Below, piece by piece: positions 5,936 through 49,395 of a stretch of 54,275 bases of DNA; positions within the stretch are counted from its first letter, which is position 1; every line of letters starts with the position of its first letter. The DNA comes from Rhodanobacteraceae bacterium (GTDB lineage Bacteria; Pseudomonadota; Gammaproteobacteria; Xanthomonadales; SZUA-5): the NCBI GenBank assembly GCA_043754435.1, contig JAYUUS010000067.1, positions 1 through 54,275 of the forward strand, given 5' to 3'. The translations under genes were made by a program, and so were the position numbers. A model generated the notes under the pieces. That model was not told where the DNA came from and did no database searches. It worked only from the letters and a program-made list of their open reading frames with translations.

Positions 5936-7732
5936 ATGATTATTAAGAAAATTATTGTGGCAGAAAGCGACCGCGCAACGTCTGAACATTACGGCAGCGA
6001 TGATCTTTTGACCGCAGGCCTAGGCGCTGCAGGCCTGCGCAATCCGGTAGCGCCCGCTTTTCTTGCGCCAGAAACGCCCACCGTTATTGAGCTGCGTCGC
6101 CGCGCAATTTGGGCTAATTGGCGCGGCATTGCGGATTTAAGCGTAGGCGGCGGTTACGCTGAATTTTATGGCTCGCTAGCGCCAGTCCCGGGCCGGGAAT
6201 TCCACTCGCTGACCCGCGTGCCCGGTGCGAAACAGCCGCATCGCGTGCTGCTGCAATTGCCGGACGCGTTTGATTTGGCGAAGCGGTGCGTGGTGGTTTC
6301 GGCGTCGTCGGGTTCACGCGGCATTTACGGGGCGATTGCGCTCGCGGGTGCCTGGGGGTTACCGCGCGGCTGTGCGGTGGCTTATACCGATAAAGGTGCA
6401 GGAACGGGCTATGTTGATACCGGCAGCGCGCATCCCTTTGCTTTCGATGGCACGCAATTAGCCAGCGCGCCAGCGGAGTTTTCGGTCGAGCCTTTTCAAG
6501 GCGAAGGCATTGCACCGATTGCAATCAAACATGCACATTCTGGCGATAACCCAGAGGCTGATTGGGGTATCCACGTCCGCCAAGCTGCGGATTTTGCGTT
6601 GAAGACGTTAACCGCAGCGTATCCGCAGGTGCCAGCCTTCACCTACGCCAACACTAAAATCATTGCGGTCGGCGTTTCCAACGGCGGCGGTGCAGTGCTG
6701 CGCGCGGCGGAGTGCGCTGAGCCTTGGCTAGACGGCGTGGTTGCGGTATCACCCAACATTTGGGCCGCAGGTGCAACAGGTACGCGCCCGCTTTACGATT
6801 ACGCAACAGAAGCCGCGATTTGGCTACCGTGCGCACTTAATGCGGCGGCCTTTGACACTGTGCCGTTGGCGCGGTTAGGCGGCGTGAAATCAGCGGCCGG
6901 TGCAAACCGCTGCCGCGCGCTGCAGCAGTTGGGCTGGCTCAAAGCGACCAGTTTGGATGCGCAATATGAGCAAGCCTACGCGCACTTAAAAGCGCAGGGC
7001 TGGACTGACGCCGCACTCAGCGCGGGTGCGCTTAGCACCAACTTTGATTTATGGCGCGCGCTTGCGGTCAGCTATGCCTGTGCCTACGCGCGTACGGATG
7101 CTGCGCATATGCCCTGCGGCTACGCTTTTCACGCGCTCGGGAGTGACGGCAAAGCGCGCGCGCCCACAGCAATTGAGGCCGCCGCCTGGCGCAGCGACGC
7201 ATCCGGTATTGCGCCAGGTGCCGGGGTTTTTATCACCGATTCGTGCGCGCAACAGCTGGATGCCAACGCGGCCGATCCAACGCTAGCCGGGCTGCTTTGT
7301 TTGCGTGCGTTGTCGCAGGGCAACGACGAAATCGCAACGACCGTACAAGCCAGTATTGCTGCCACTGCGGCCAAACCACCTCGCGTTGGCCTTGCAGTTA
7401 TTGTCATTCACGGAATTGACGACGGCTTGATACCTGCCGCCTTTAGCAGCGCGCCCTATGTCGCGATGGCGAAAGATCAGGGTCGAAGTGTGCGCTATTG
7501 GCGCGTACACAACGCGCAGCATTTTGACGCCTTTATCAGTTTGCCCGCATGGGCGCATCGCTATGTGCCCCTGATGCCATACGCCTATCACGCCTTAGAT
7601 GCTGTTTGGTTGCATGTGTCGCAAGGTGCGCAATTGCCAGCAGACGCTGAGCTAATAACGACACCGCGCACGCTGAGTGCGGCGGGCTTGAGTGTGTTGA
7701 CGCACGCGAACTTGGGGGCCTTGCCACGTTGA
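5936..7732 (+). CDS. D-(-)-3-hydroxybutyrate oligomer hydrolase family protein
   Basis: DDLLTAGLG, SSGSRGIYGA, CAVAYTDKG, KHAHSGDNPEADWG, catalytic GVSNGG, HGIDDGLIP, NAQHFDAF. Confidence 0.88.
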   Translation: MIIKKIIVAESDRATSEHYGSDDLLTAGLGAAGLRNPVAPAFLAPETPTVIELRRRAIWANWRGIADLSVGGGYAEFYGSLAPVPGREFHSLTRVPGAKQPHRVLLQLPDAFDLAKRCVVVSASSGSRGIYGAIALAGAWGLPRGCAVAYTDKGAGTGYVDTGSAHPFAFDGTQLASAPAEFSVEPFQGEGIAPIAIKHAHSGDNPEADWGIHVRQAADFALKTLTAAYPQVPAFTYANTKIIAVGVSNGGGAVLRAAECAEPWLDGVVAVSPNIWAAGATGTRPLYDYATEAAIWLPCALNAAAFDTVPLARLGGVKSAAGANRCRALQQLGWLKATSLDAQYEQAYAHLKAQGWTDAALSAGALSTNFDLWRALAVSYACAYARTDAAHMPCGYAFHALGSDGKARAPTAIEAAAWRSDASGIAPGAGVFITDSCAQQLDANAADPTLAGLLCLRALSQGNDEIATTVQASIAATAAKPPRVGLAVIVIHGIDDGLIPAAFSSAPYVAMAKDQGRSVRYWRVHNAQHFDAFISLPAWAHRYVPLMPYAYHALDAVWLHVSQGAQLPADAELITTPRTLSAAGLSVLTHANLGALPR

Positions 7733-7752
7733 GTCGTGCAAGCGCAAGCAAT

Positions 7753-8349
7753 CTAAAGCAACTGCTGCGATAGCGCAAATAACGCCTTGGCGCGATGGCT
7801 ACAGACGTTTTTAACGCTTGCGCCAAGCTCAGCAGCACTTTTTCCTAGAGTGACATCAAAAAATACCGAGTCATAGCCAAAGCCGTTGCTGCCGCGTGGG
7901 GCGAAAAGAATTTCGCCGCGCCATTCGCCCTGTGCAATCAGGGGCAATGGATCGAGCGCGTTACGCACCAGCGCCAATACGCTCACGAAGCGAGCACTGC
8001 GATTTTTTGCGCCGCGCATTGCGTCGAGTAATTTGGCGATGTTCGCCGCACTGTTGCCGTGCTCACCGGCATAATATGCGCTAATCAGCCCCGGCGCACC
8101 GTCTAGCACATCCACGCATAGGCCCGAGTCGTCGGCCAGTGCCGCCATACCGCTTAACTTTGCCGCATTGCGCGCTTTAATCAGCGCGTTTTCCACGAAT
8201 GTGATGCCGGTTTCTTGCGCGTCAGCAATGCCCAAGGCGGTTTGGCTGACGACTTCAATGCCGAGCGGGGCCAAAAGCGCATCGAATTCTGCGAGCTTGC
8301 CCGGATTGCCGCTAGCAATCACAAGTTTATTAAAGCCGAAAAACAACAT
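7753..8349 (-). CDS. rdgB: Non-canonical purine NTP pyrophosphatase RdgB (HAM1 family)
   Basis: ASGNPGKLAE, ADDSGLCVD, GFGYD, SHRAKA; directly downstream of rph. Confidence 0.95.
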   Translation of the reverse strand: MLFFGFNKLVIASGNPGKLAEFDALLAPLGIEVVSQTALGIADAQETGITFVENALIKARNAAKLSGMAALADDSGLCVDVLDGAPGLISAYYAGEHGNSAANIAKLLDAMRGAKNRSARFVSVLALVRNALDPLPLIAQGEWRGEILFAPRGSNGFGYDSVFFDVTLGKSAAELGASVKNVCSHRAKALFALSQQLL

Positions 8350-8383
8350 CGTCTGACTCGGTTCGCTGCTAGAGCCTTATTAA

Positions 8384-9109
8384 TTAAAGCCGCCCTAAAG
8401 CGGCACGCTGTGCCGCACAGAGCTGGGCGATGCCGGTGCCTGCTAAATCCAGCAAAGCGTTGAGCTCAGCACGGGAAAATGCGTGGCCTTCGGCCGTGCC
8501 TTGCACTTCGATAAGGCCGCCCGCATCGGTCATCACGACGTTCATATCGGTGTCGCACTGGCTGTCTTCAATATAGTCTAGATCCAGCACCGGCTGGCCT
8601 TGATAAATGCCAACGCTGACCGCAGCAACTTGCCCATGCACGGGGTCTTTTTTGATGGCGCCCGTCTTAAGTAGCTTCTGACAGGCATCGACTAAGGCAA
8701 CATAAGCACCGGTAATCGCGGCGGTGCGCGTGCCGCCGTCCGCTTGCAGCACGTCGCAATCGAGCTTGATCTCGCGCTCACCCAACGCTTCAAAATTCAT
8801 CACGGCGCGCAAAGAACGCCCGATCAAACGCTGAATTTCATGAGTGCGCCCGCTCGGCCCACGCTGTGTGTCGCGATTGCCGCGCGTATGGGTTGCGCGC
8901 GGCAGCATCGAATATTCAGCCGTCACCCAACCTTTGCCAGTACCGCGCCGGTGCGGCGGGGAGCGATCATCGACGCTCGCCGTACACAGCACTAAAGTGT
9001 CCCCAAAGCCCACCAGCACTGAACCCTCGGCATATTTGGTGTAGTTACGTTCGATACGCAGGCTGCGCAGTTGGTCGGCAGTGCGGCCAGAAGGGCGGGG
9101 TTTGGACAT
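8384..9109 (-). CDS. rph: Ribonuclease PH
   Basis: [53 protein letters not shown]. Confidence 0.98.
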
Positions 9110-9191
9110 GGGTCATCGCTCAATAATTTTGTGACACGATGCTACACGCAGTTGCGGCAATAGTTGGGTGCGATTCAAAGTGATATTGAAT

Positions 9192-10421
9192 CTAACGCAA
9201 CAACGGCGATTCCAAAACTTTAGAGGGCCGACCTAAAACTTTCGCAGCGGCAGCTTTGAATTCTTCGGTTGACACCTTTTTTCGCGCTGCGATGATGAGC
9301 CGGGTGACATCATCTAAGTTGTGTTTGCCGCCACTGACATTGCGAATTTCAGTATCCAGCTCACTCAACAACACAACTGCTTTCGCGGTGACTTCACCGG
9401 CTGATCGCGGCACGGTAATCGTCGTCACCGCTTTACTCCACTTCTTTAGAGCATCTATCGTGTCGCTAAAGCGTTCTTCGGTCATGCCGCCAGAACGGCG
9501 AATTACTTCAAAACCGTAAAATTCCGCAAGTCCTTCCGCGATCCAATCGCTGCGTGAGGAGCCGACAATTCGCGTAATGGAGTGCGTGAGTTCATGCAGT
9601 AAGGTAGATGTGCCGTTTTCACTAATCAAAGGCCGATCCATATGGATAAACAGCGAATTAGGCCCGGAAAGCCCACCCCGCCACATCGGGTCTGGCCCGG
9701 TCACGATCAATAAGCGTGCCGGCATGACTCCAAAAGCACGCTGCATTTCTGGCAAGTTGTAATTAAGCAACGCCAGCATGTCCTGACGGCGTATCCCTAA
9801 GCCCTCGGGGCCGGCGACAAATACTTCGCAGCCAGCAATTTTTTCGATGCGATTAGCGATTTCGCCCGCGATCATCCAGCCCTTGGGCGCATCAAATTTA
9901 CGCTGAAGGTCTTTTAGACTAAATCTATATTGGGTTTCACTAGTGCGCTGATAGCCGGTGTTGACGTGCCAACCTTTCGGTACCGTTAATACCATTTCGC
10001 TCACCGAATGGCCTTTGGCAAGCACGCGCGCTTGTGGAAACGCATCATCGCCGCGAAAAATGGCCCATTTAGCACCGACCAGTGCATCGAACCCCCCATC
10101 CGCGCGTTGGTGATTGATCGCAACCGAATAGCGTAAGGTGCCGCCGGCTTGGGGCGGGGTCCAAAGAACTTTGTCACCCATAATTTTGACTTCGCCGTCG
10201 CCCTTGATTCCGCTGTAGCGACTAGCCGGCATGTTTAAGCGCATATTAGCGACATAGCCGGTGCCCGCAACAATCACGACTGAGCCGTTGGCGGATTTGC
10301 TATTGGGCTGCAAATCCAAGTTGAATCGGGCTTGATAGGTGCGCGAGGCATGGGCACTTTCGACCGTAAAAAACAGCCCCACCACTAAAACAGCCAGCGC
10401 AAGCCAAAAAAAATGGCGCAT
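9192..10421 (-). CDS. Secreted putative zinc metallopeptidase (gluzincin, M61/M1-like)
   Basis: Signal peptide ending AHA; LLHELTH followed by WIAEGLAEFY (HEXXH plus downstream Glu). Confidence 0.7.
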   Translation of the reverse strand: MRHFFWLALAVLVVGLFFTVESAHASRTYQARFNLDLQPNSKSANGSVVIVAGTGYVANMRLNMPASRYSGIKGDGEVKIMGDKVLWTPPQAGGTLRYSVAINHQRADGGFDALVGAKWAIFRGDDAFPQARVLAKGHSVSEMVLTVPKGWHVNTGYQRTSETQYRFSLKDLQRKFDAPKGWMIAGEIANRIEKIAGCEVFVAGPEGLGIRRQDMLALLNYNLPEMQRAFGVMPARLLIVTGPDPMWRGGLSGPNSLFIHMDRPLISENGTSTLLHELTHSITRIVGSSRSDWIAEGLAEFYGFEVIRRSGGMTEERFSDTIDALKKWSKAVTTITVPRSAGEVTAKAVVLLSELDTEIRNVSGGKHNLDDVTRLIIAARKKVSTEEFKAAAAKVLGRPSKVLESPLLR

Positions 10422-10597
10422 AGATTTCCTTGTAATTCATCAAACCGTGAATGCTAACGCTTTGCAGCGCGGTTCGCGCTTATATAGTGCTGTATCTGTC
10501 CGCTTTAGCTGGCGATGCAATGAGTCACATTGGGGCTACGGAACTTCCGACAAAACTTTCAGTCAAGACGGATCTGACCACTCACAACAGGCGCGCT

Positions 10598-11380
10598 GTG
10601 CGAACTTTACAACCTTTGGCTTATTTAATTGCGGCGGCGCTTGTAGTCAATTCTTGGCACAGTGCTGCGAACGCCGTGCCGAGCGTCAGTAGTTCTGAAA
10701 TTCAGGCCAGCCCTGGCATTCAAGCCGCTGTTACCGGGCTTAATCCTCAACTCAAAATAACGAGCATCAAGAACTCCGCGATTCCGGGCGTGAAAGAGGT
10801 CATTGTTGGTTCGGACGTGCTTTATTTTAGTAGCGACGGTAAACATTTGATTCAAGGCACGATGTTTGAAACCAAAACTCGGCGCAACCTTACTGATGAT
10901 GCCCTTGCAGGGCTGCGATTGACCGCGTTGAAAAGCTTGAGTGCCAAAGACATGATTGTTTTTCCCGCCAAGAGTAAGCGGCTGTATTCGATCAAAGTGG
11001 TTTCCGATATCGATTGCGGCGTTTGCCGAAAGCTGCATTCTGAGATTGCGCAGTTCTCGGACGCGGGCATTGAAGTGCAATACATCATTATGCCGCGCAA
11101 TGGTTTGGGCGACGATTCTGCGCGCAAAGCCGTTGCGGTGTATTGCGCGGCAAACCCGCAAAAAGCACTCACGCAAGCAAAAAGCGGCATCGACCCAGGC
11201 AATGCCAGTTGCCCAAATCCGGTGGCGAAAAATTTCGCGCTTAGCGCCGCTTTGGGAATTCATGCTACGCCCACTTTAGTGTTTGACGATGGTGGCATTT
11301 CGCCCGGCTATATGCCGGTGCCAGCGCTTATTGCCGAACTGAATCGCCGTGCTGGGCTGAACGTTAAGAAAGCGCTGTGA
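10598..11380 (+). CDS. DsbC-family thiol:disulfide isomerase, divergent paralog (CGVC)
   Basis: DIDCGVCRKLH and ATP cis-Pro loop. GTG 10598 gives a signal peptide; ATG 10520 is an alternative start. Confidence 0.85.
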   Translation: MRTLQPLAYLIAAALVVNSWHSAANAVPSVSSSEIQASPGIQAAVTGLNPQLKITSIKNSAIPGVKEVIVGSDVLYFSSDGKHLIQGTMFETKTRRNLTDDALAGLRLTALKSLSAKDMIVFPAKSKRLYSIKVVSDIDCGVCRKLHSEIAQFSDAGIEVQYIIMPRNGLGDDSARKAVAVYCAANPQKALTQAKSGIDPGNASCPNPVAKNFALSAALGIHATPTLVFDDGGISPGYMPVPALIAELNRRAGLNVKKAL

Positions 11381-11461
11381 TAGACGCTCGCCCTTCACCT
11401 ACTCGCGAAGTACACTTCAAACAAAATACCGTACTTTAAAACTATTAACTTTGGAAAAATT

Positions 11462-12190
11462 ATGCGCTTCTCGACCTCAATTCTTGCCACCGCCATTTTA
11501 GCTGTAACTTCCTTCGCGCAAGCGGACGAGGCCCAAGTGCGTGCGGCTATTAAAGTTTTAAATCCTTCTGCTGTGGTCGATTCGGTCAAAGCGACGCCGG
11601 TCAAGGGCTGGATGGAAGCAACTTTAGGTGGGCAAATTATCTATTTCAGCGAAGACGGCAAATATCTGCTGCAGGGTGCGCTAGTAGAAACCGCGACGCG
11701 ACGCAATTTGACGGAAGAATCACAGTCCGTGGTGCGCATTGCGGAGTTAGCAAAAATTCAAAAGAAAGACATGATTATTTTTCCTGCCAATGGCGTGACC
11801 AAGCATGTGGTCAAAGTTTTCACCGACATTGATTGTGGGTACTGCCGCAAATTGCACTCAGAAATTAAGCAATACAGTGACTTAGGGATTGAAGTGCAAT
11901 ATTTATGGTTTCCACGCGCCGGGGTTCCAAGTGAATCCTCACGCAAGGCGGTCGCGGTTTTTTGCGCAAAAGACCAGCGTAAAGCACTGACCGACGCTAA
12001 AAATGGTGCTGATCCAGGCAATGCAACCTGCGTGAATCCTGTAGAAGCGGACTACAACATGGGCCAGCGTATGGGCGTTAATGGCACGCCTGCTTTGTTG
12101 TTGGAAGACGGCACCTTGATGCCGGGCTATATGCCAGCGGCACAGCTATTGGCCGAATTGGACAAGCACGCTGCAACAAAGAAGAAATAG
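11462..12190 (+). CDS. dsbC: Thiol:disulfide interchange protein DsbC
   Basis: Signal peptide (AQA), VFTDIDCGYCRKLH, FPRAG, GVNGTP, PGY. Confidence 0.93.
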   Translation: MRFSTSILATAILAVTSFAQADEAQVRAAIKVLNPSAVVDSVKATPVKGWMEATLGGQIIYFSEDGKYLLQGALVETATRRNLTEESQSVVRIAELAKIQKKDMIIFPANGVTKHVVKVFTDIDCGYCRKLHSEIKQYSDLGIEVQYLWFPRAGVPSESSRKAVAVFCAKDQRKALTDAKNGADPGNATCVNPVEADYNMGQRMGVNGTPALLLEDGTLMPGYMPAAQLLAELDKHAATKKK

Positions 12191-44296: not shown

Positions 44297-46105
44297 TTGG
44301 GCGCACTTTACGGCGAAATTTTCACCGATTGGCACACGCCAGTCGAGTTCAGCGCATTCACTGCCAGCGCGGCAAAACTCAAGCACCGCGCGCGCGCCGG
44401 GCAAACGCTACGCCAAACACCGGGTGCTGCACTGATGTGGGCGAATGCAGGCACCCCGAATGACCGGGCTGTAGATGGCCAGCCTTGGCTCGACCGGGAT
44501 TTATGGATTGCCTTTGACGGCGCACTGCACAACCATGCCGCACTGCTTACTGAGCTCAAGCTGCCCGTTGAAACACGGATTTTGGCGCTGCTCGTCCATG
44601 GCTGGCGGCGCTTCGGCGTGAAGTTTGCGCAGCGGCTAGAAGGTAATTTTGTGCTGGTCGTGATTGATTTTGCCCAGCGTAAAGTGTGTTTAGCGCGTGA
44701 CCCACTGGGCGCGCGCGCACTGCACTATCAAATGCGGCCTGCAAGCGCTAAGGGTCCTGCATGTTTGCGCTTTGCCAGCGAAGTTGCGGCGCTAGTTGTG
44801 CCGAACACGCCGCCCTGCAGCCACGCCGTCGCCAATTATTTCGCGTTTGCCGCCATGCCAACATCGCAAACGATGTATGCGGACATACAAACCTTGGCTG
44901 CCGGTGCGCAGATTACGCTGAACGATACTAAGCTGAGCGTTGAAACCCATGATTTTGACGTGCCAGAGCCCATCCGAAAAATAACCGATAGCGATGCGAT
45001 ACAGCAATTTCGTGCCTTGCTTGCGGCCTCTATTCGCACGCATTCGCCAACGACGGGCCGACTTGGGATCAGCCTCAGCGGTGGCTTGGATTCCAACACG
45101 CTGTTCGCATTGAGCACCGACCAGCGGCCTGCACAAGATCTGTGCGCGCTGAGCTGGCAGTTTGAGCAGCTTAAAATTTGCGATGAAACTGAGTTTTCAA
45201 ACTTACACGCCACCTCGCGCAACATCGAGCATCTGCGCTTTAATGCAGACGCCCTGACTGTGCTGTGCCGGCCCGCGTTGCGACCGGTCAGCCGAAATAC
45301 CCCGCACTCAAATATCTATCGCGAACTCAAGACGCAACTGTATGCACTGGCCGCTCAGGCCAAAGTACACACGCTGTTTAATGGCGCGTTTGGCGATCAC
45401 TTATTTAGCGATATAAACGAGTGGCTGAGTGATGCGCTAGCGCGCGGGGATTTCAGCCCGATTATGCGCGAATATCTCTGGCGCTTGCGGCGTAACCCTA
45501 GGCTTTGGCAAGATGGCTCCGTGCGCCGCATGGTGCGCCGCGCACTTGGCTTGGGTGTTTATCGGTATCGCCACCTCAATGAGCTAACGCCGTTCGCGTG
45601 TGCGCAAGCGCAGATTTCTGAGCCTGTTCAGGGCCTGCGCGCGCATCAGCTTGAACTTAATTTAGGCACAGGCGCGCAATTTGGCGCCAGTGGTGAAGCC
45701 GAGTTTGCTGAGCGTTTTGGCATTGACCTGAGTACACCGTATCGGTCACCCGCGCTATTGCGTTTCATGCACGCCCTGCCCGTCCACCTGAGCCAGCGAC
45801 GCGGAATCAGCAAATGGATATTGCGCGAAGCGATGGCTGAAAAAATGCCGGAGGCGATTCGAGTGCGGCCCAAATCAAGCAGTTTGCAGCCGTTTTTTGA
45901 CACCGCAATCGCCGGGCCCGCACGCGCGCAGGCTTCAGCACTGCTTTTTTCCGCCGATGCCGACTGGCCTAGGTTTTATCAGCACAGCAAAATAAAGGCG
46001 CTTTTCGATGCCACCCGCAGCGACGCGGAAAGTGCGAAGTTGTGGCAATGCTTAGGATATGAGCTATGGCGGGTCGAAATTGGACTGCGTGCGTCGCGGG
46101 GATGA
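44297..46105 (+). CDS. Asparagine synthetase-related protein (lasso cyclase-like; no N-terminal catalytic Cys)
   Basis: ARDPLGARALHY, FASE, PP-loop SLSGGLDS, FGDHLF, KWILREAM...RPK. The N-terminus is MGALYG rather than MCG. Confidence 0.8.
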   Translation: MGALYGEIFTDWHTPVEFSAFTASAAKLKHRARAGQTLRQTPGAALMWANAGTPNDRAVDGQPWLDRDLWIAFDGALHNHAALLTELKLPVETRILALLVHGWRRFGVKFAQRLEGNFVLVVIDFAQRKVCLARDPLGARALHYQMRPASAKGPACLRFASEVAALVVPNTPPCSHAVANYFAFAAMPTSQTMYADIQTLAAGAQITLNDTKLSVETHDFDVPEPIRKITDSDAIQQFRALLAASIRTHSPTTGRLGISLSGGLDSNTLFALSTDQRPAQDLCALSWQFEQLKICDETEFSNLHATSRNIEHLRFNADALTVLCRPALRPVSRNTPHSNIYRELKTQLYALAAQAKVHTLFNGAFGDHLFSDINEWLSDALARGDFSPIMREYLWRLRRNPRLWQDGSVRRMVRRALGLGVYRYRHLNELTPFACAQAQISEPVQGLRAHQLELNLGTGAQFGASGEAEFAERFGIDLSTPYRSPALLRFMHALPVHLSQRRGISKWILREAMAEKMPEAIRVRPKSSSLQPFFDTAIAGPARAQASALLFSADADWPRFYQHSKIKALFDATRSDAESAKLWQCLGYELWRVEIGLRASRG

Positions 46106-46111
46106 GCTGTT

Positions 46112-46361
46112 ACCTAACGAGGCTGTAGGAAAAGTAAATTGGGCCTGGTTTGCAACCCGTCTGCGCTCATTGATGCCGCTCTTGGCTGAAAAAAAGCGCC
46201 TTTAAGGATGAAAACTTGCCCAGATTTGGCGTACAAGAGCCTTGCAGCAGCCAGAAGTGCTGGACTGCCGACCAAAAGGTTTCTGGAAATCACTTTTTCT
46301 ACAGCCTCAACGCTACGTTAAGCCGCCGGACGCACCTCTCTGTCAGTCGGTCTTGTTACCT
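46112..46361 (-). other. Degenerate integron attC site interrupted by the MITE
   Basis: Removing the MITE gives 57 nt, AGGTAAC...GCGGCTTAACGTAGC-GTTAGGT. R' matches GTTRRRY and the toxin stop TAA overlaps the R'' AAC. Confidence 0.55.
46119..46308. mobile_element. 190-bp MITE with GAGGCTGT... terminal inverted repeats
   Basis: TIRs GAGGCTGTAGGAAAAGTAA and GAGGCTGTAGAAAAAGTGA (17/19); AAC duplicated on both sides; no ORF. Confidence 0.8.
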
Positions 46362-46616
46362 TAGCAGCTTGTCATACTCGGCGTGACTTCCAATCCAAAA
46401 CCACTGCAACCCTTCTGAAACCGGCACGCCAAGCGCTCGGTAGTGCAACCCGACGCGAACACTGCGATAGCGCCCATAATTTACGTGCTTGAACTGCAAT
46501 GACGGATGCGCCGGATTTTGCTTGAGCAAGGCATAGTTGCTGTAAGCAAGTGTTTGAATTTCAAAAGGTAATGCGTCAAGTAGAGCCCAAAATTTGCTCG
46601 ACGCGAAATGCTTCAA
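46356..46616 (-). CDS. ParE/RelE-like toxin
   Basis: HPSLQFK, SVRVGLHYRALG, WFWIGSHAEYDKLL; TTG start overlaps the antitoxin stop. Confidence 0.85.
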   Translation of the reverse strand: MKHFASSKFWALLDALPFEIQTLAYSNYALLKQNPAHPSLQFKHVNYGRYRSVRVGLHYRALGVPVSEGLQWFWIGSHAEYDKLLR

Positions 46617-46813
46617 AGTTCGCGAGCCAGGCCGTTTTGATATTCGGCAAGCGCCTCTGCTGCAAGGGCGTCGAGTTTACCTGCAGCTGCATCTGTCTCA
46701 ATTTGCTTGTCCCATGCCATAGAGTCGAATTTGACAAACCAACTTCGAAACTTGGCGAGATCAACAGGGGGAAGGTTCTGAATTGCCTGTTCAATAGCAT
46801 CAATTGTGCTCAT
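46613..46813 (-). CDS. Putative antitoxin (66 aa, acidic)
   Basis: MSTIDAIEQAIQNL...WDKQIETDAAAGKLDALA; translationally coupled to the toxin; GGAG RBS. Confidence 0.8.
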   Translation of the reverse strand: MSTIDAIEQAIQNLPPVDLAKFRSWFVKFDSMAWDKQIETDAAAGKLDALAAEALAEYQNGLAREL

Positions 46814-46967
46814 TTGGGTGTTATCTCCGTAGTGAACCGCCATAAAAGTCGGTTCGATCAATCCGATTAGTTTGGCTTGAACACATAAATTAGTGTGCTT
46901 CTTCAATTTTGGTAATGGTGAAGGAATTCACTGACACTTCGTATACTTTTAGCTCTTCTGGATATAC

Positions 46968-47355
46968 CTACGTTTTGGCTTGACCGCGCCGAATGGCGAA
47001 CTGGAAAACGTAATTCGTCTCGAACGCGTCACAAAATGATTTTAGGTTATAGGACAGTGTTTCTCCAGACTTTAGAACGCGTTCAAAGTCGTATTTTCTA
47101 TCTCCTCGCCACTGCTGCAAATAGCGATTTTTTTGCCAGATGGTTCCTTCGTATTTGCACCGAATTCGCTCAGATACATGCTCAGCAAGTCCTCCTTGCT
47201 CGGCAAATATAAACGATACGCTGTTGCTCCCCTTCGAGGGAGTTGCGGTTGCGGTCGAGGTCGCAGACATCATGCGAGGTTTGCGGAGCAATCAGCGGCA
47301 ACTGGCATCCCGAAAGAAGCAGTGCAGAAACCGCAAATGCGTAGATAAAGTGCAT
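46968..47355 (-). pseudogene. Frameshifted small lipoprotein gene
   Basis: MHFIYAFAVSALLLSGC (lipobox) stops at 47182, while an overlapping frame continues to 46968. Confidence 0.45.
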
Positions 47356-47404: not shown

Positions 47405-48880
47405 TCAGGCAAACAATACCGCACTAATCGCACTGGCCGACATGGATTCGCAGATGCCATCAAACGCTGCTTTAACGGCGGCACCCGCAGTTACTGGGCG
47501 CAGCGCAATGATTAAGCCATTGAAACCGGCACTGCGGGCACTGAAGGCAAATTTAGCGGCGCCGGGCAAATTCGGGTCAATTAATATTACCTGAGGTGGG
47601 CGTGCCAGCAATTGCGCCAACAGGCCATCCACATAAATCGGTTGCTCCAGCACCAACCCACGTGATTCCACGGCGGTGCCCGCAATTTGTGTCAACGCTT
47701 GATCCAGACTGAGCAGCCAGCAACGCGCACCCACAGCCAGCGCAACGCGGGTGCGGGGCACGGCAATGGTGCTATTTTCATACATGCTAGCCTCTAAACC
47801 TTTCGGCAAAGGCACGCTCAGCACCAAAGTAAGCCCCAAAGCGGGATCAAATTGGCGCGTTAAACGCGCACCCATTGACGCTTGGCACTGCGCGCAAAGC
47901 ACCAGCGCCAGATCGCTCGGCAGCCAGCTCGGTGTGCTGCCAAAGCCTATTTCATCACTGCGGTAGCTGCTCGCGGGCAGCTTGCGATCCCAAGCTAAGC
48001 TCGACTCACGCGCGGTCAAGTCACTAACCCCGCAATAAGCGCTCAAACGCAAGCTGTCATTTTCAAGCTGCAGCGTGGCGCTCAATTCTGGCGTGCTCAA
48101 GCTTGCGCGTCGATGCGCAAACATTAAAAGCGGCAGTAACGCACTGGCGCAGGCTGCTGAATTGGCAGCGATCAGACGCGCGTCATTACGATTGCACTTC
48201 AAGCTAATCTGGGCCACGCTTAGTTTTTCGAGCGCCTGTGCCACGGCTTCCAAATTGCATGTGACAGCACTTCGTATCAACGGCGCATTGCGTTCCGTGC
48301 GCTCCAGTACCTCTGCCAGCGCTTCAATCGCGGCACCGGTGGCAAATAATTCATGTCGCAGTTGGCCGTAACGCGCCTGCGCTAAGGCTAAGGCCCAAGC
48401 TAAGGCGTCACGTTCCTTGCGCACTTCGGTGAGCGAGCTGCGCTGTTTGCGCAGTTCACGCGTTTTTTCGTAAGACTTTAATTCGGTTTCTTGCGCGCTT
48501 TGTTGCCAAACGCGCGTCTTTTCAACTTCTTCTCGGGCGTCCAACAGCAATACATGCACGCCCGATTTTGAGCTAAACAGATGCAAATCTATAAACCGGC
48601 CATTGGGTAAACCAATATGCTTCAACGCAGCCCCGCGCACGCGGGGTAAGCCTACACACAGCGCTTTAAGCAGGCTGGCTATTTCTTCAGGGGGCGTTTG
48701 CTCTAGGCTAAAACGTGCTAACTCCCCGATGTAGCCCAACCATTGCCAGTCTTCATCAAAGCTGAGCAATAACGAATCCACCGGCGCGATTGCGGCGCGG
48801 TTCAAATAATGTTCTATCGCGCGCGGCAAAACTACTTTGCTTTGCTTGGCCAAAGCGTTGATGCCATAGCTAATACTCAT
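47405..48880 (-). CDS. Degenerate hybrid sensor protein (PAS-like domain, coiled coil, pseudo-HATPase, pseudo-receiver)
   Basis: LRHEL at the H-box position, eroded N/G1/G2 boxes, C-terminal PPQVILID receiver-like fold; ATGA overlap with the GTPase gene. Confidence 0.6.
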   Translation of the reverse strand: MSISYGINALAKQSKVVLPRAIEHYLNRAAIAPVDSLLLSFDEDWQWLGYIGELARFSLEQTPPEEIASLLKALCVGLPRVRGAALKHIGLPNGRFIDLHLFSSKSGVHVLLLDAREEVEKTRVWQQSAQETELKSYEKTRELRKQRSSLTEVRKERDALAWALALAQARYGQLRHELFATGAAIEALAEVLERTERNAPLIRSAVTCNLEAVAQALEKLSVAQISLKCNRNDARLIAANSAACASALLPLLMFAHRRASLSTPELSATLQLENDSLRLSAYCGVSDLTARESSLAWDRKLPASSYRSDEIGFGSTPSWLPSDLALVLCAQCQASMGARLTRQFDPALGLTLVLSVPLPKGLEASMYENSTIAVPRTRVALAVGARCWLLSLDQALTQIAGTAVESRGLVLEQPIYVDGLLAQLLARPPQVILIDPNLPGAAKFAFSARSAGFNGLIIALRPVTAGAAVKAAFDGICESMSASAISAVLFA

Positions 48881-49395
48881 CGCGCACCTGCAATCAACGC
48901 TTGCGTTAATGCTTTAAAACCCACCTCTACACCCTCCCCAGTCATCGCGCTGGCCTCAAATACCGGCATAGATTTACGTAATTCTGCCAGCATCGCGGCT
49001 GTCACTTCCCAGTCGTCCAAACGATCGAACTTATTCACCAATAAAACCGCTGGAAGCTCCGGGTTGGTTTCTTGACGCGCCTGCATAAGCAGATACAGCG
49101 CCGAGCGCAGGGTCGCTTCGCGGGTGCCATCGGCGACTAAAACCACGCCACTGGTGCCCTGTAAATAGCTCAGCTTGACGCTATCGAGCGCGCTTTTACC
49201 GGCAATATCCCACAGCACCAGTTTGACGCGGGGTGCATCAGGCAGCGTTGGTTCAAGCTGTTTGGTGTCAATTTTAACGCCGACTGTGGTTACATATTTT
49301 TCGCTAAAAGCCGAGTGTACAAAGCGCGCCACTAAGCTGGTTTTGCCCACGCCAAAATCACCCAGCATACAAACTTTTCGCGTTAATTCTTTCAC
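48877..49395 (-). CDS. Rab/Ras-like small GTPase
   Basis: G1 GDFGVGKT, G2 YVTTVG, G3 WDIAG, G4 NKFD, G5 EASA; 172 aa. Confidence 0.92.
   Translation of the reverse strand: MKELTRKVCMLGDFGVGKTSLVARFVHSAFSEKYVTTVGVKIDTKQLEPTLPDAPRVKLVLWDIAGKSALDSVKLSYLQGTSGVVLVADGTREATLRSALYLLMQARQETNPELPAVLLVNKFDRLDDWEVTAAMLAELRKSMPVFEASAMTGEGVEVGFKALTQALIAGAR

Follow-up and report, generated by a model that had tools for sequence, protein, structure and literature searches.

What does a Ras-like molecular switch do with a partner that has the shape of a histidine kinase and none of its catalytic motifs? The question is raised by two overlapping genes at positions 47405-49395, on the minus strand, of a contig from a Rhodanobacteraceae bacterium (JAYUUS010000067.1, assembly GCA_043754435.1), of which we analyzed the whole stretch of 54,275 nucleotides, here called the window. 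A first-pass annotation, made from the letters of the DNA alone, had described the pair as a Rab-like small GTPase followed by an intact but catalytically eroded hybrid histidine kinase, and had proposed that a phosphorelay protein was repurposed there as a non-catalytic partner of the switch. Using profile comparisons, structure prediction, substitution rates, and a survey of related genomes, we conclude that the pair probably derives from the Group 1 Rup module by reduction to two genes, with a Rup switch joined to a non-catalytic protein that used to be a kinase.

Group 1 Rup GTPases were defined computationally by Wuichet and Sogaard-Andersen (2014, Genome Biol Evol 7:57, PMC4316618), according to whom no other bacterial proteins resemble eukaryotic Ras, Rab, and Rho more closely; their G motifs are Ras-like and lack the G3 glutamine. 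As described there, the typical neighborhood encodes a coiled-coil protein, an unknown-domain/transmembrane/OmpA protein, the Rup GTPase, and an output protein, either a histidine kinase or of the GGDEF/EAL type, whose N-terminal region contains an invariant glutamine, proposed to act on the GTPase in trans. The features of the window that bear on this comparison are the following:

48877-49395, minus strand: Rup-type small GTPase of 172 residues, with a GTG start and five G motifs.
48877-48880, minus strand: ATGA overlap, in which the TGA that ends the GTPase and the ATG that starts the partner have bases in common (junction gcgcgATGAgt).
47405-48880, minus strand: pseudo hybrid histidine kinase, the Rup output protein (the partner), of 491 residues plus stop, with an ATG start.
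48536-48835, minus strand: tentatively PAS-like N-terminal domain of the partner, residues 16-115, the Rup-associated input domain.
48500-48505, minus strand: codons of Gln126-Gln127, an invariant glutamine pair in the signaling helix.
48338-48535, minus strand: long signaling helix, residues 116-181, leading from the PAS-like domain into a region resembling a dimerization and histidine-phosphotransfer (DHp) domain and ending at LRHELF (His176).
47801-48337, minus strand: second DHp-like helix and a domain resembling the catalytic and ATP-binding (CA) domain, derived from HATPase_c, residues 182-360, with the N, G1, and G2 boxes lost.
47408-47740, minus strand: receiver-like (beta-alpha)5 domain, residues 381-491, in which only Asp435 is retained.

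The GTPase belongs to the Ras superfamily, as it scores above the curated Pfam cut-off for PF00071 (Ras, E 9.5e-26, 90.7 bits against a cut-off of 21.6) and carries all of the motifs from G1 to G5: GDFGVGKTS, TTVG, WDIAGK, NKFD, and SA, invariant across the 11 loci that were aligned. It also matches Roc (E 7.5e-23) and the NCBIfam family small_GTP (E 1.1e-14), and its whole-protein ratio of nonsynonymous to synonymous substitution rates (dN/dS) is 0.007-0.071 in six congeneric genomes. The position after DxAG, where Ras has its catalytic glutamine, holds a glutamine in none of 36 related GTPases, being instead Lys in 15, Thr in five, Arg in four, Ala in four, Ser in three, Glu in two, and Asn, Gly, or Phe in one each. 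The protein ends in ...LIAGAR, without a cysteine. Each of these properties (172 residues, five G motifs, a G3 without the catalytic glutamine, and no C-terminal cysteine) had been read correctly in the first-pass annotation, whose label "Rab-like" is apt as a statement of family resemblance and does not extend beyond that level. The position equivalent to Gly12 of Ras is a phenylalanine in 36 of 36 GTPases, namely the window's own (48877-49395) and those of loci L002-L052. In Ras, any side chain at the Gly12 position blocks GTPase-activating proteins (GAPs) that work through an arginine finger, and the phenylalanine would fit a different mechanism based on glutamine. The Rup GTPase is an intact nucleotide switch that is unable to supply its own catalytic glutamine.

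The partner reaches no family in Pfam or NCBIfam, and the rows below threshold are Phage_CRI of Pfam, on the long helix, and SMC of NCBIfam (E 0.12). A word-indexed search collected 25 relatives with identities between 92% and 37%, all without a precomputed Pfam domain, and an exhaustive phmmer search collected 46 cluster representatives at E <= 0.001. Many of the distant phmmer relatives align only to the first ~200 residues of the partner, and the consensus of the distant relatives displays the full complement of kinase and receiver motifs (LSHxxRTPL, NLLxNA, DTGPGI, GAGLGL, DD, PDxxLxD, and KP). For a direct comparison, we set the 22 sequences of the window's family against 23 intact Rup-linked kinases. 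HisKA, HATPase_c, and Response_reg are recognized in all 23 of the latter, whereas none of the three is reached by any of the 22, in agreement with the earlier description of the catalytic boxes as eroded. The two profiles nonetheless align in hhalign with a probability of 99.9% (E 7.7e-33) over 444 collinear columns, residues 10-470, pairing LRHELF with LSHEFR, LLPLLMFAH with INLxxNAxK, CGVSD with DTGPG, and PSDLAL with GAGLGL, and, in the receiver, WLLSLD with LVVDDD, VILID with LILVD, ALRP with ALSA, and CES with xKP. A pairwise BLASTP search of the partner against the intact Rup kinase of the same genome is not significant (best E 0.11), so the homology between partner and kinase is visible by profile methods only. 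A profile search of PDB sequences returned only receiver matches below threshold (ShkA, E 0.14; NtrC, E 0.28).

The predicted structure leads to the same assignment. The AlphaFold2 model of the partner (mean predicted local distance difference test, pLDDT, 80.5; predicted template modeling score 0.47) begins with an N-terminal domain of the alpha/beta type, followed by a helix that covers residues 116-181 and by a CA-like domain, also alpha/beta, and it ends in a (beta-alpha)5 domain. In a Foldseek search with the full model, histidine kinases with PAS or LOV domains come first (4gcz, E 4.8e-11), and ShkA, RetS (6dk8), DivL, and ChpT (4fmt, 4fpp) are also listed. The layout and every motif named in the first-pass annotation were found where it had placed them, and both the profile alignment and the model bear out its proposal of a kinase and receiver fold. 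We conclude, as judged from sequence and predicted fold, that the partner is descended from a hybrid histidine kinase and has become catalytically degenerate.

A residue-by-residue comparison of 25 degenerate proteins with 38 intact relatives shows how far this degeneration has gone. The two asparagines of the N box, the D, G, and G of G1, and the three glycines of G2 are 100% invariant in the 38 intact relatives; the partner has P250 and F254 in the N box, C283, V285, and D287 in G1, and P321, D323, and A325 in G2. In its receiver, L392 stands for the invariant Asp and S479 for the invariant Lys, ALRP takes the place of ALSA, and the acidic pair, the Thr/Ser, and the Lys are thereby all replaced. 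Every catalytic invariant of the intact clade is replaced or relaxed among the 25 degenerate proteins, with the H-box His present in 40% and the receiver phospho-Asp in 76% of them. His176 of the partner aligns with the H-box His and, together with Glu177, is at least 90% conserved in the window's close family, while the rest of the box (xxRTPL) is gone. Other residues, namely W45, C75, R80, G83, D98, H109, R123, Q130, R258, W297, R339, and S355, are fixed in the degenerate clade only, and those common to the degenerate and intact clades, Q126 and Q127 among them, lie mostly in the N-terminal module. The partner has lost the ATP-binding boxes and the phospho-chemistry of the receiver and keeps the fold of the DHp, CA, and receiver domains.

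Such losses could accompany decay, and we therefore estimated substitution rates among the six congeneric genomes, using the 14 of 15 pairs with a finite dS. For the whole partner, dN/dS is 0.048-0.098 and dN is 0.06-0.19; dS is about 0.9-2.8 and thus saturated, which makes the ratios approximate, and dN is itself low. By domain, the ratio is lowest in the helix and DHp region (0.039), followed by the N-terminal domain (0.061), the receiver-like domain (0.072), the CA-like domain (0.077, residues 201-360), and a 20-residue linker (0.33). The family alignment of 22 sequences has 69 invariant columns at identities falling to 38%, and none of the 24 genomic matches contains an in-frame stop. The pattern of substitution indicates that the partner is maintained by purifying selection and is not decaying; the unbroken frame emphasized in the first-pass annotation is under constraint, with ratios far below 1, and close orthologs, rather than having intact kinase boxes, are as eroded as the window's copy.

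The degenerate outputs share a single origin. All 25 lie on one side of a branch with 100% support in the Shimodaira-Hasegawa-like approximate likelihood ratio test (SH-aLRT), and the split holds on 125 N-terminal columns alone, which contain none of the eroded motifs. The trees come from a quick search without a mixture model and are unrooted, and that the change was a loss of catalysis is argued from how widespread the intact state is. P0038, which branches off earliest, retains LSHEFRAPL and DTGPS and looks like a transitional state. In the GTPase tree, nine GTPases of degenerate outputs group (SH-aLRT 90) with five GTPases of intact kinases (L044, L045, L047, L048, and L051), and these five also read WDxAGK. 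Among the genomes searched, degenerate forms occur only in three genera of one family, the Rhodanobacteraceae.

The genome to which the window belongs also encodes a complete, intact Rup system, on a second contig (C158; locus L023, positions 6837-12026, minus strand). Its genes specify, in order, an OmpR-type regulator, a 205-residue helical protein, a 548-residue protein without family, a Rup GTPase of 198 residues with the G3 motif WDLAGA, and a hybrid kinase of 499 residues whose HisKA, HATPase_c, and REC domains all score above the Pfam cut-offs. As in the window, the Rup gene overlaps the gene for an output of about 500 residues with the same N-terminal domain and glutamine pair (loci L014 and L023); unlike in the window, the catalytic domains are intact, and two accessory genes (548 and 205 residues) and the OmpR-type regulator precede the pair. 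Its GTPase falls in a separate clade, with which neither the nine degenerate-linked nor the five intact-linked GTPases group, and the C158 system is therefore not a recent parent of the window's pair. In a further genus (g6), three intact hybrid kinases with the N-terminal domain (L042, L043, and L050) have no Rup gene within the fetched flanks, and in their genomes a Rup gene stands beside a degenerate partner instead.

The N-terminal domain of the partner, modeled with a pLDDT of 81.5, has no Pfam PAS match. VIA-align fills ranks 1-22 with PAS, LOV, or phytochrome domains only (root-mean-square deviation 2.6-3.2 over 86-112 residues) at Z scores up to 7.5, where values below 8 may reflect merely a common arrangement; longin-type chains (AP-3 sigma, COPI zeta) follow behind PAS/LOV at Z 6.3-6.5. 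A Foldseek search with the domain gave weak rows (E 3e-3 to 1.6e-2), in which PAS domains are mixed with LAMTOR, dynein roadblock, and RagA. A Roadblock/MglB-like fold, suspected from the alpha-beta-beta-alpha-beta-beta-beta order, is a candidate alternative, with PAS/LOV placed first by VIA-align. We tentatively regard the modeled domain as PAS-like. Its C-terminal helix runs on into the DHp region, as it does in LOV-kinases.

The glutamine pair Q126-Q127 on this helix is invariant in all four alignments of output proteins and is conserved in the degenerate and the intact clades alike, as well as in outputs with HD-GYP and PP2C domains. The pair probably corresponds to the invariant N-terminal glutamine described in PMC4316618. 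An arginine finger on the same helix was considered as well and rejected, as Arg123 is fixed in the degenerate clade only, and the arginine of intact relatives lies at another position and is absent from L014. The N-terminal domain was found in 16 of 400 genomes sampled across the class, and at 14 of the 15 loci outside the window's genome, a Rup gene lies directly upstream of the protein that contains it; at the remaining locus (L032), there is no upstream Rup open reading frame (ORF) of at least 90 codons. The outputs at these 15 loci are 13 intact hybrid kinases, one HD_5 (HD-GYP-type) protein, and one SpoIIE/PP2C phosphatase. In L030 (1492-2982) and L035 (1480-2718), the N-terminal domain and glutamine pair are fused to HD_5 or SpoIIE/PP2C, each directly after a Rup gene, and the output types given in the text of PMC4316618 are histidine kinase and GGDEF/EAL only. 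A Rup gene is also directly upstream at all loci of genus g1 and at nine of 12 further loci. The ancestor of the partner is best seen as a soluble hybrid kinase with this Rup-accompanying domain as its sole input.

How the two proteins may meet was addressed by modeling the GTPase, loaded with GTP and Mg, together with residues 16-140 of the partner, in three runs and with three controls. The interface score ipSAE is 0.87 in three of three runs, against 0.35 for the best control; 58 of 80 solved complexes and two of 110 mismatched pairs reach the 0.87 mark, counts that calibrate the score only roughly, as our own alignments and the riding ligand lie outside the calibration. The three runs share at least 92% of their contacts, with a partner pLDDT of at least 82. 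On the GTPase, the predicted interface comprises P-loop residues 14-15, switch I and beta2 (34-44), residue 60, A65, and switch II (73-80), and thus includes Phe14, the residue at the Gly12-equivalent position. On the partner, it is formed by the strand 84-92, with the invariant L86, G90, L91, and P92, and by helix residues 119-138, where R123, Q126, Q127, Q130, E131, L134, Y137, and E138 make contact. Q126 and Q127 are predicted to touch Thr36 of switch I, and Q130 to touch Phe14. The model supports binding between the switch regions of Rup and the partner's PAS-like domain plus Gln-Gln helix. The interaction foreseen in the first-pass annotation gains support from it; the predicted interface also fits the 2014 proposal of a glutamine acting in trans.

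A mechanism can be proposed on this basis. Rup-GTP would use its P-loop, switch I/beta2, and switch II to dock on the partner, at both the PAS-like domain and the Gln-Gln helix. The partner would read the nucleotide state and, by giving a glutamine in trans in the manner of a GAP, probably speed its decay. The signal may then travel along the continuous helix into the kinase-shaped body, which would act by binding other proteins and not by transferring phosphate, as the pseudokinases DivL and RetS do; its likely targets belong to the intact Rup-kinase phosphorelay that the genome encodes at another place. The earlier suggestion of a repurposed phosphorelay protein is upheld as far as kinase descent, selection, linkage, and modeled binding are concerned, and the GAP role and the non-catalytic output are what we infer from them. 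A bolder version, to which we would assign a modest chance, has Rup and the dead kinase acting together as a pseudokinase operated by a GTPase and connected to the intact Rup phosphorelay of the cell, whose kinase or regulator it would bind in the way of RetS or DivL; the gain of a two-component pathway would then be set by a Ras-like switch that performs no phosphoryl chemistry itself.

Several points weigh against this proposal, in addition to the saturation of dS and the rough calibration of the complex score described above. The modeled complex is a prediction and not a measurement, and the trans-glutamine role is conjectural. The mid-region of the CA-like domain is aligned by hhalign with gaps and at low confidence. 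The window's subclade keeps His176-Glu177 and Asp435 and may still carry out some phosphotransfer. All of the genomes are metagenome bins, that of the window (G000) being 90% complete. According to the text of PMC4316618, no Rup system had been characterized experimentally as of 2014, and we found no later literature on Rup systems that would lend experimental support to any of them.

Retention of His176 invites another explanation, in which the partner is an ATP-independent histidine phosphotransferase, similar to ChpT or Hpt, whose His176 shuttles phosphate between the receivers of other proteins, such as the intact Rup kinase and its OmpR-type regulator, under the control of Rup. The conservation of His176-Glu177 in the window's close family, the presence of ChpT among the Foldseek matches, and the intact hybrid kinase and OmpR-type regulator in the same genome all speak for it; yet the histidine is found in only 40% of the 25-member degenerate clade, it is replaced in L007, L008, and L012, though these are conserved and Rup-linked, and the partner's own receiver is without the acidic pair, Thr, and Lys, and we hold this explanation to be rather unlikely. 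We rate equally low the idea that the partner is a Rup-controlled inhibitor or co-sensor that heterodimerizes, through its DHp-like helices, with the intact Rup-linked kinase, as RetS does with GacS, so that two Rup lineages would converge on one output, which amounts to a specific form of our preferred explanation. A second protein with the N-terminal domain occurs in eight of 13 genomes of the genera that bear degenerate forms, or in four of five if only genomes at least 90% complete are counted, and all 12 of the 12 second copies examined are intact kinases. RetS is among the fold matches, and the intact copies of genus g6 are without an adjacent Rup gene where the degenerate pair has one. 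Against heterodimerization, genome G005 is 95% complete and has the degenerate pair only, and the DHp region has strongly diverged from that of intact kinases.

The clade-specific residues fixed in the CA-like domain, and the purifying selection acting on it (dN/dS 0.077), could also mean that the partner is still an enzyme, its former ATP pocket binding a nucleotide or other ligand through R258, W297, R339, and S355. Since the asparagine pair of the N box, the D-G-G of G1, and the G-G-G of G2 are replaced without exception, we consider this very improbable. Least credible of all is simple decay, in which a dying kinase gene would have kept its frame open by chance: the loss of all catalytic boxes is what decay would produce, but it is refuted by dN/dS values of 0.05-0.10 with a dN of 0.06-0.19 across the six congeneric genomes, and the 69 invariant columns over 22 sequences falling to 38% identity, the 24 matches free of in-frame stops, and the age of a clade old enough to span three genera likewise stand against it.

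The organization of the locus is consistent from genome to genome. The ATGA overlap joining the ORFs of 172 and 491 residues, as reported at the outset, is read directly at the junction; overlaps of this type are also present at loci L002-L009, and the pair recurs with the same overlap in six of six congeneric genomes, which establishes the conserved linkage that the first-pass annotation had wished to see surveyed. In the window, the pair is flanked on one side by pepB and a GT4 glycosyltransferase gene, and on the other by a ParE-like toxin-antitoxin pair, an asnB-like gene, and mutY. A congeneric genome has the pair between the same pepB and asnB-like/mutY genes, from which we conclude that it occupies a stable chromosomal locus. 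At one locus of another genome (L010, 541-2529, minus strand; genome G014), the GTPase and the degenerate partner form a single ORF of 662 residues, with Pfam Ras at residues 11-167, where L008 and L009 of the same genus have two overlapping genes; the single ORF reflects a genuine fusion or else an assembly error of one base.

A Pfam scan of the neighboring ORFs gave no match to OmpA and none to Robl_LC7, confirming that no adjacent OmpA or MglB/roadblock gene exists there and arguing against a module of the MglA/MglB type. The G motifs are likewise of the Rup/Ras type and not those of an MglA-type module; MglA carries an intrinsic arginine finger and a glutamine. The accessory proteins of intact Rup loci are homologous among themselves, at 34-44% identity for the 550- and 200-residue proteins and 34-36% for those of ~550 residues from L023, L041, and L044. 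When these ~550-residue proteins and the ~200-residue proteins of intact loci were used as tblastn queries, neither gave a match in the 54-kb window. The absence of OmpA-type and accessory genes from the window is a derived loss; a full intact system sits elsewhere in the same genome. Consensus scans for promoters (one found, against a shuffled mean of 2.5) and terminators (seven found, against 4.9 in shuffled sequence) did not exceed expectation.

Two neighbors deserve a brief description. At 46356-46906 on the minus strand lies a ParE-like toxin gene (Pfam ParE_like, 1.5e-08) with an overlapping upstream ORF of 97 residues, probably the antitoxin, and a small ORF occupies 46968-47291. The distance from the partner's stop to the asnB-like gene is ~1.3 kb in the window, where it holds the toxin-antitoxin pair, and ~35 bases in the syntenic congeneric locus L017, so that the toxin-antitoxin pair looks like a recent insertion. 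At 44297-46105 on the plus strand, a gene that is syntenic in L017 encodes a 602-residue homologue of asparagine synthase (Asn_synthase, 5.5e-26, with weaker GATase matches), a family within which lasso-peptide cyclases fall.

The significance of the locus lies in what evolution has taken away. It is the smallest Rup form seen, two overlapping genes without accessory proteins, in which the output has been stripped of its enzymatic activity and yet preserves the entire fold along with the module that faces the GTPase. The loss of catalysis alongside a retained GTPase-facing module implies that the interaction between GTPase and partner is separable from phosphotransfer. With only two soluble proteins, the action of a glutamine in trans, the PAS-like domain as a sensor of Rup, and signaling without catalysis all become testable, and the pair offers a minimal entry point to a family of Ras-like switches in bacteria that is experimentally untried. 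Few histidine pseudokinases are on record from bacteria, and the pair contributes one that is under GTPase control.

How does the pair compare with systems already described? The first-pass annotation had singled it out as an undescribed signaling system, a claim that does not hold for its parent, the Group 1 Rup system, which has been in print since 2014 on computational evidence (PMC4316618); the window's pair derives from that module and is not a new class of system. It shares with Group 1, as presented in that paper, the missing G3 glutamine, the adjoining kinase-derived output with an N-terminal invariant glutamine, and an occurrence that includes Gammaproteobacteria. Group 1 systems have four genes, whereas the window has only Rup and its output, with both accessory genes absent from the 54 kb, and the Group 1 output is a signaling enzyme, whereas the window's is devoid of all kinase and receiver catalytic motifs. 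The passages of PMC4316618 on which this comparison draws make no mention of degenerate kinase outputs or of a two-gene form; such outputs could be listed in its supplementary table S2.

Proteins with a histidine-kinase fold that signal without kinase activity of their own are also a precedent. RetS of Pseudomonas works through protein-protein contacts rather than through its own autophosphorylation. DivL loses only the phospho-acceptor histidine and RetS keeps most boxes, whereas the window's partner has lost its N, G1, and G2 boxes and the receiver motifs as well. Like the partner, DivL of Caulobacter, as described in PMC4211667, has a histidine-kinase fold that signals by protein contacts and not by its own autophosphorylation. 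Neither DivL nor RetS is known to be controlled by a small GTPase. In the actinobacterial conservons (CvnA kinase, CvnB roadblock, CvnC, and CvnD GTPase; PMC4316618, PMC13343842), as here, a small GTPase of the Ras superfamily is coupled genetically to a protein of the histidine-kinase type. According to these sources, conservons combine an MglA-type GTPase, a roadblock (MglB-like) partner, and a membrane kinase, whereas the window combines a Rup-type GTPase, with no adjacent roadblock gene, and a soluble kinase-derived protein with a PAS-like input domain.

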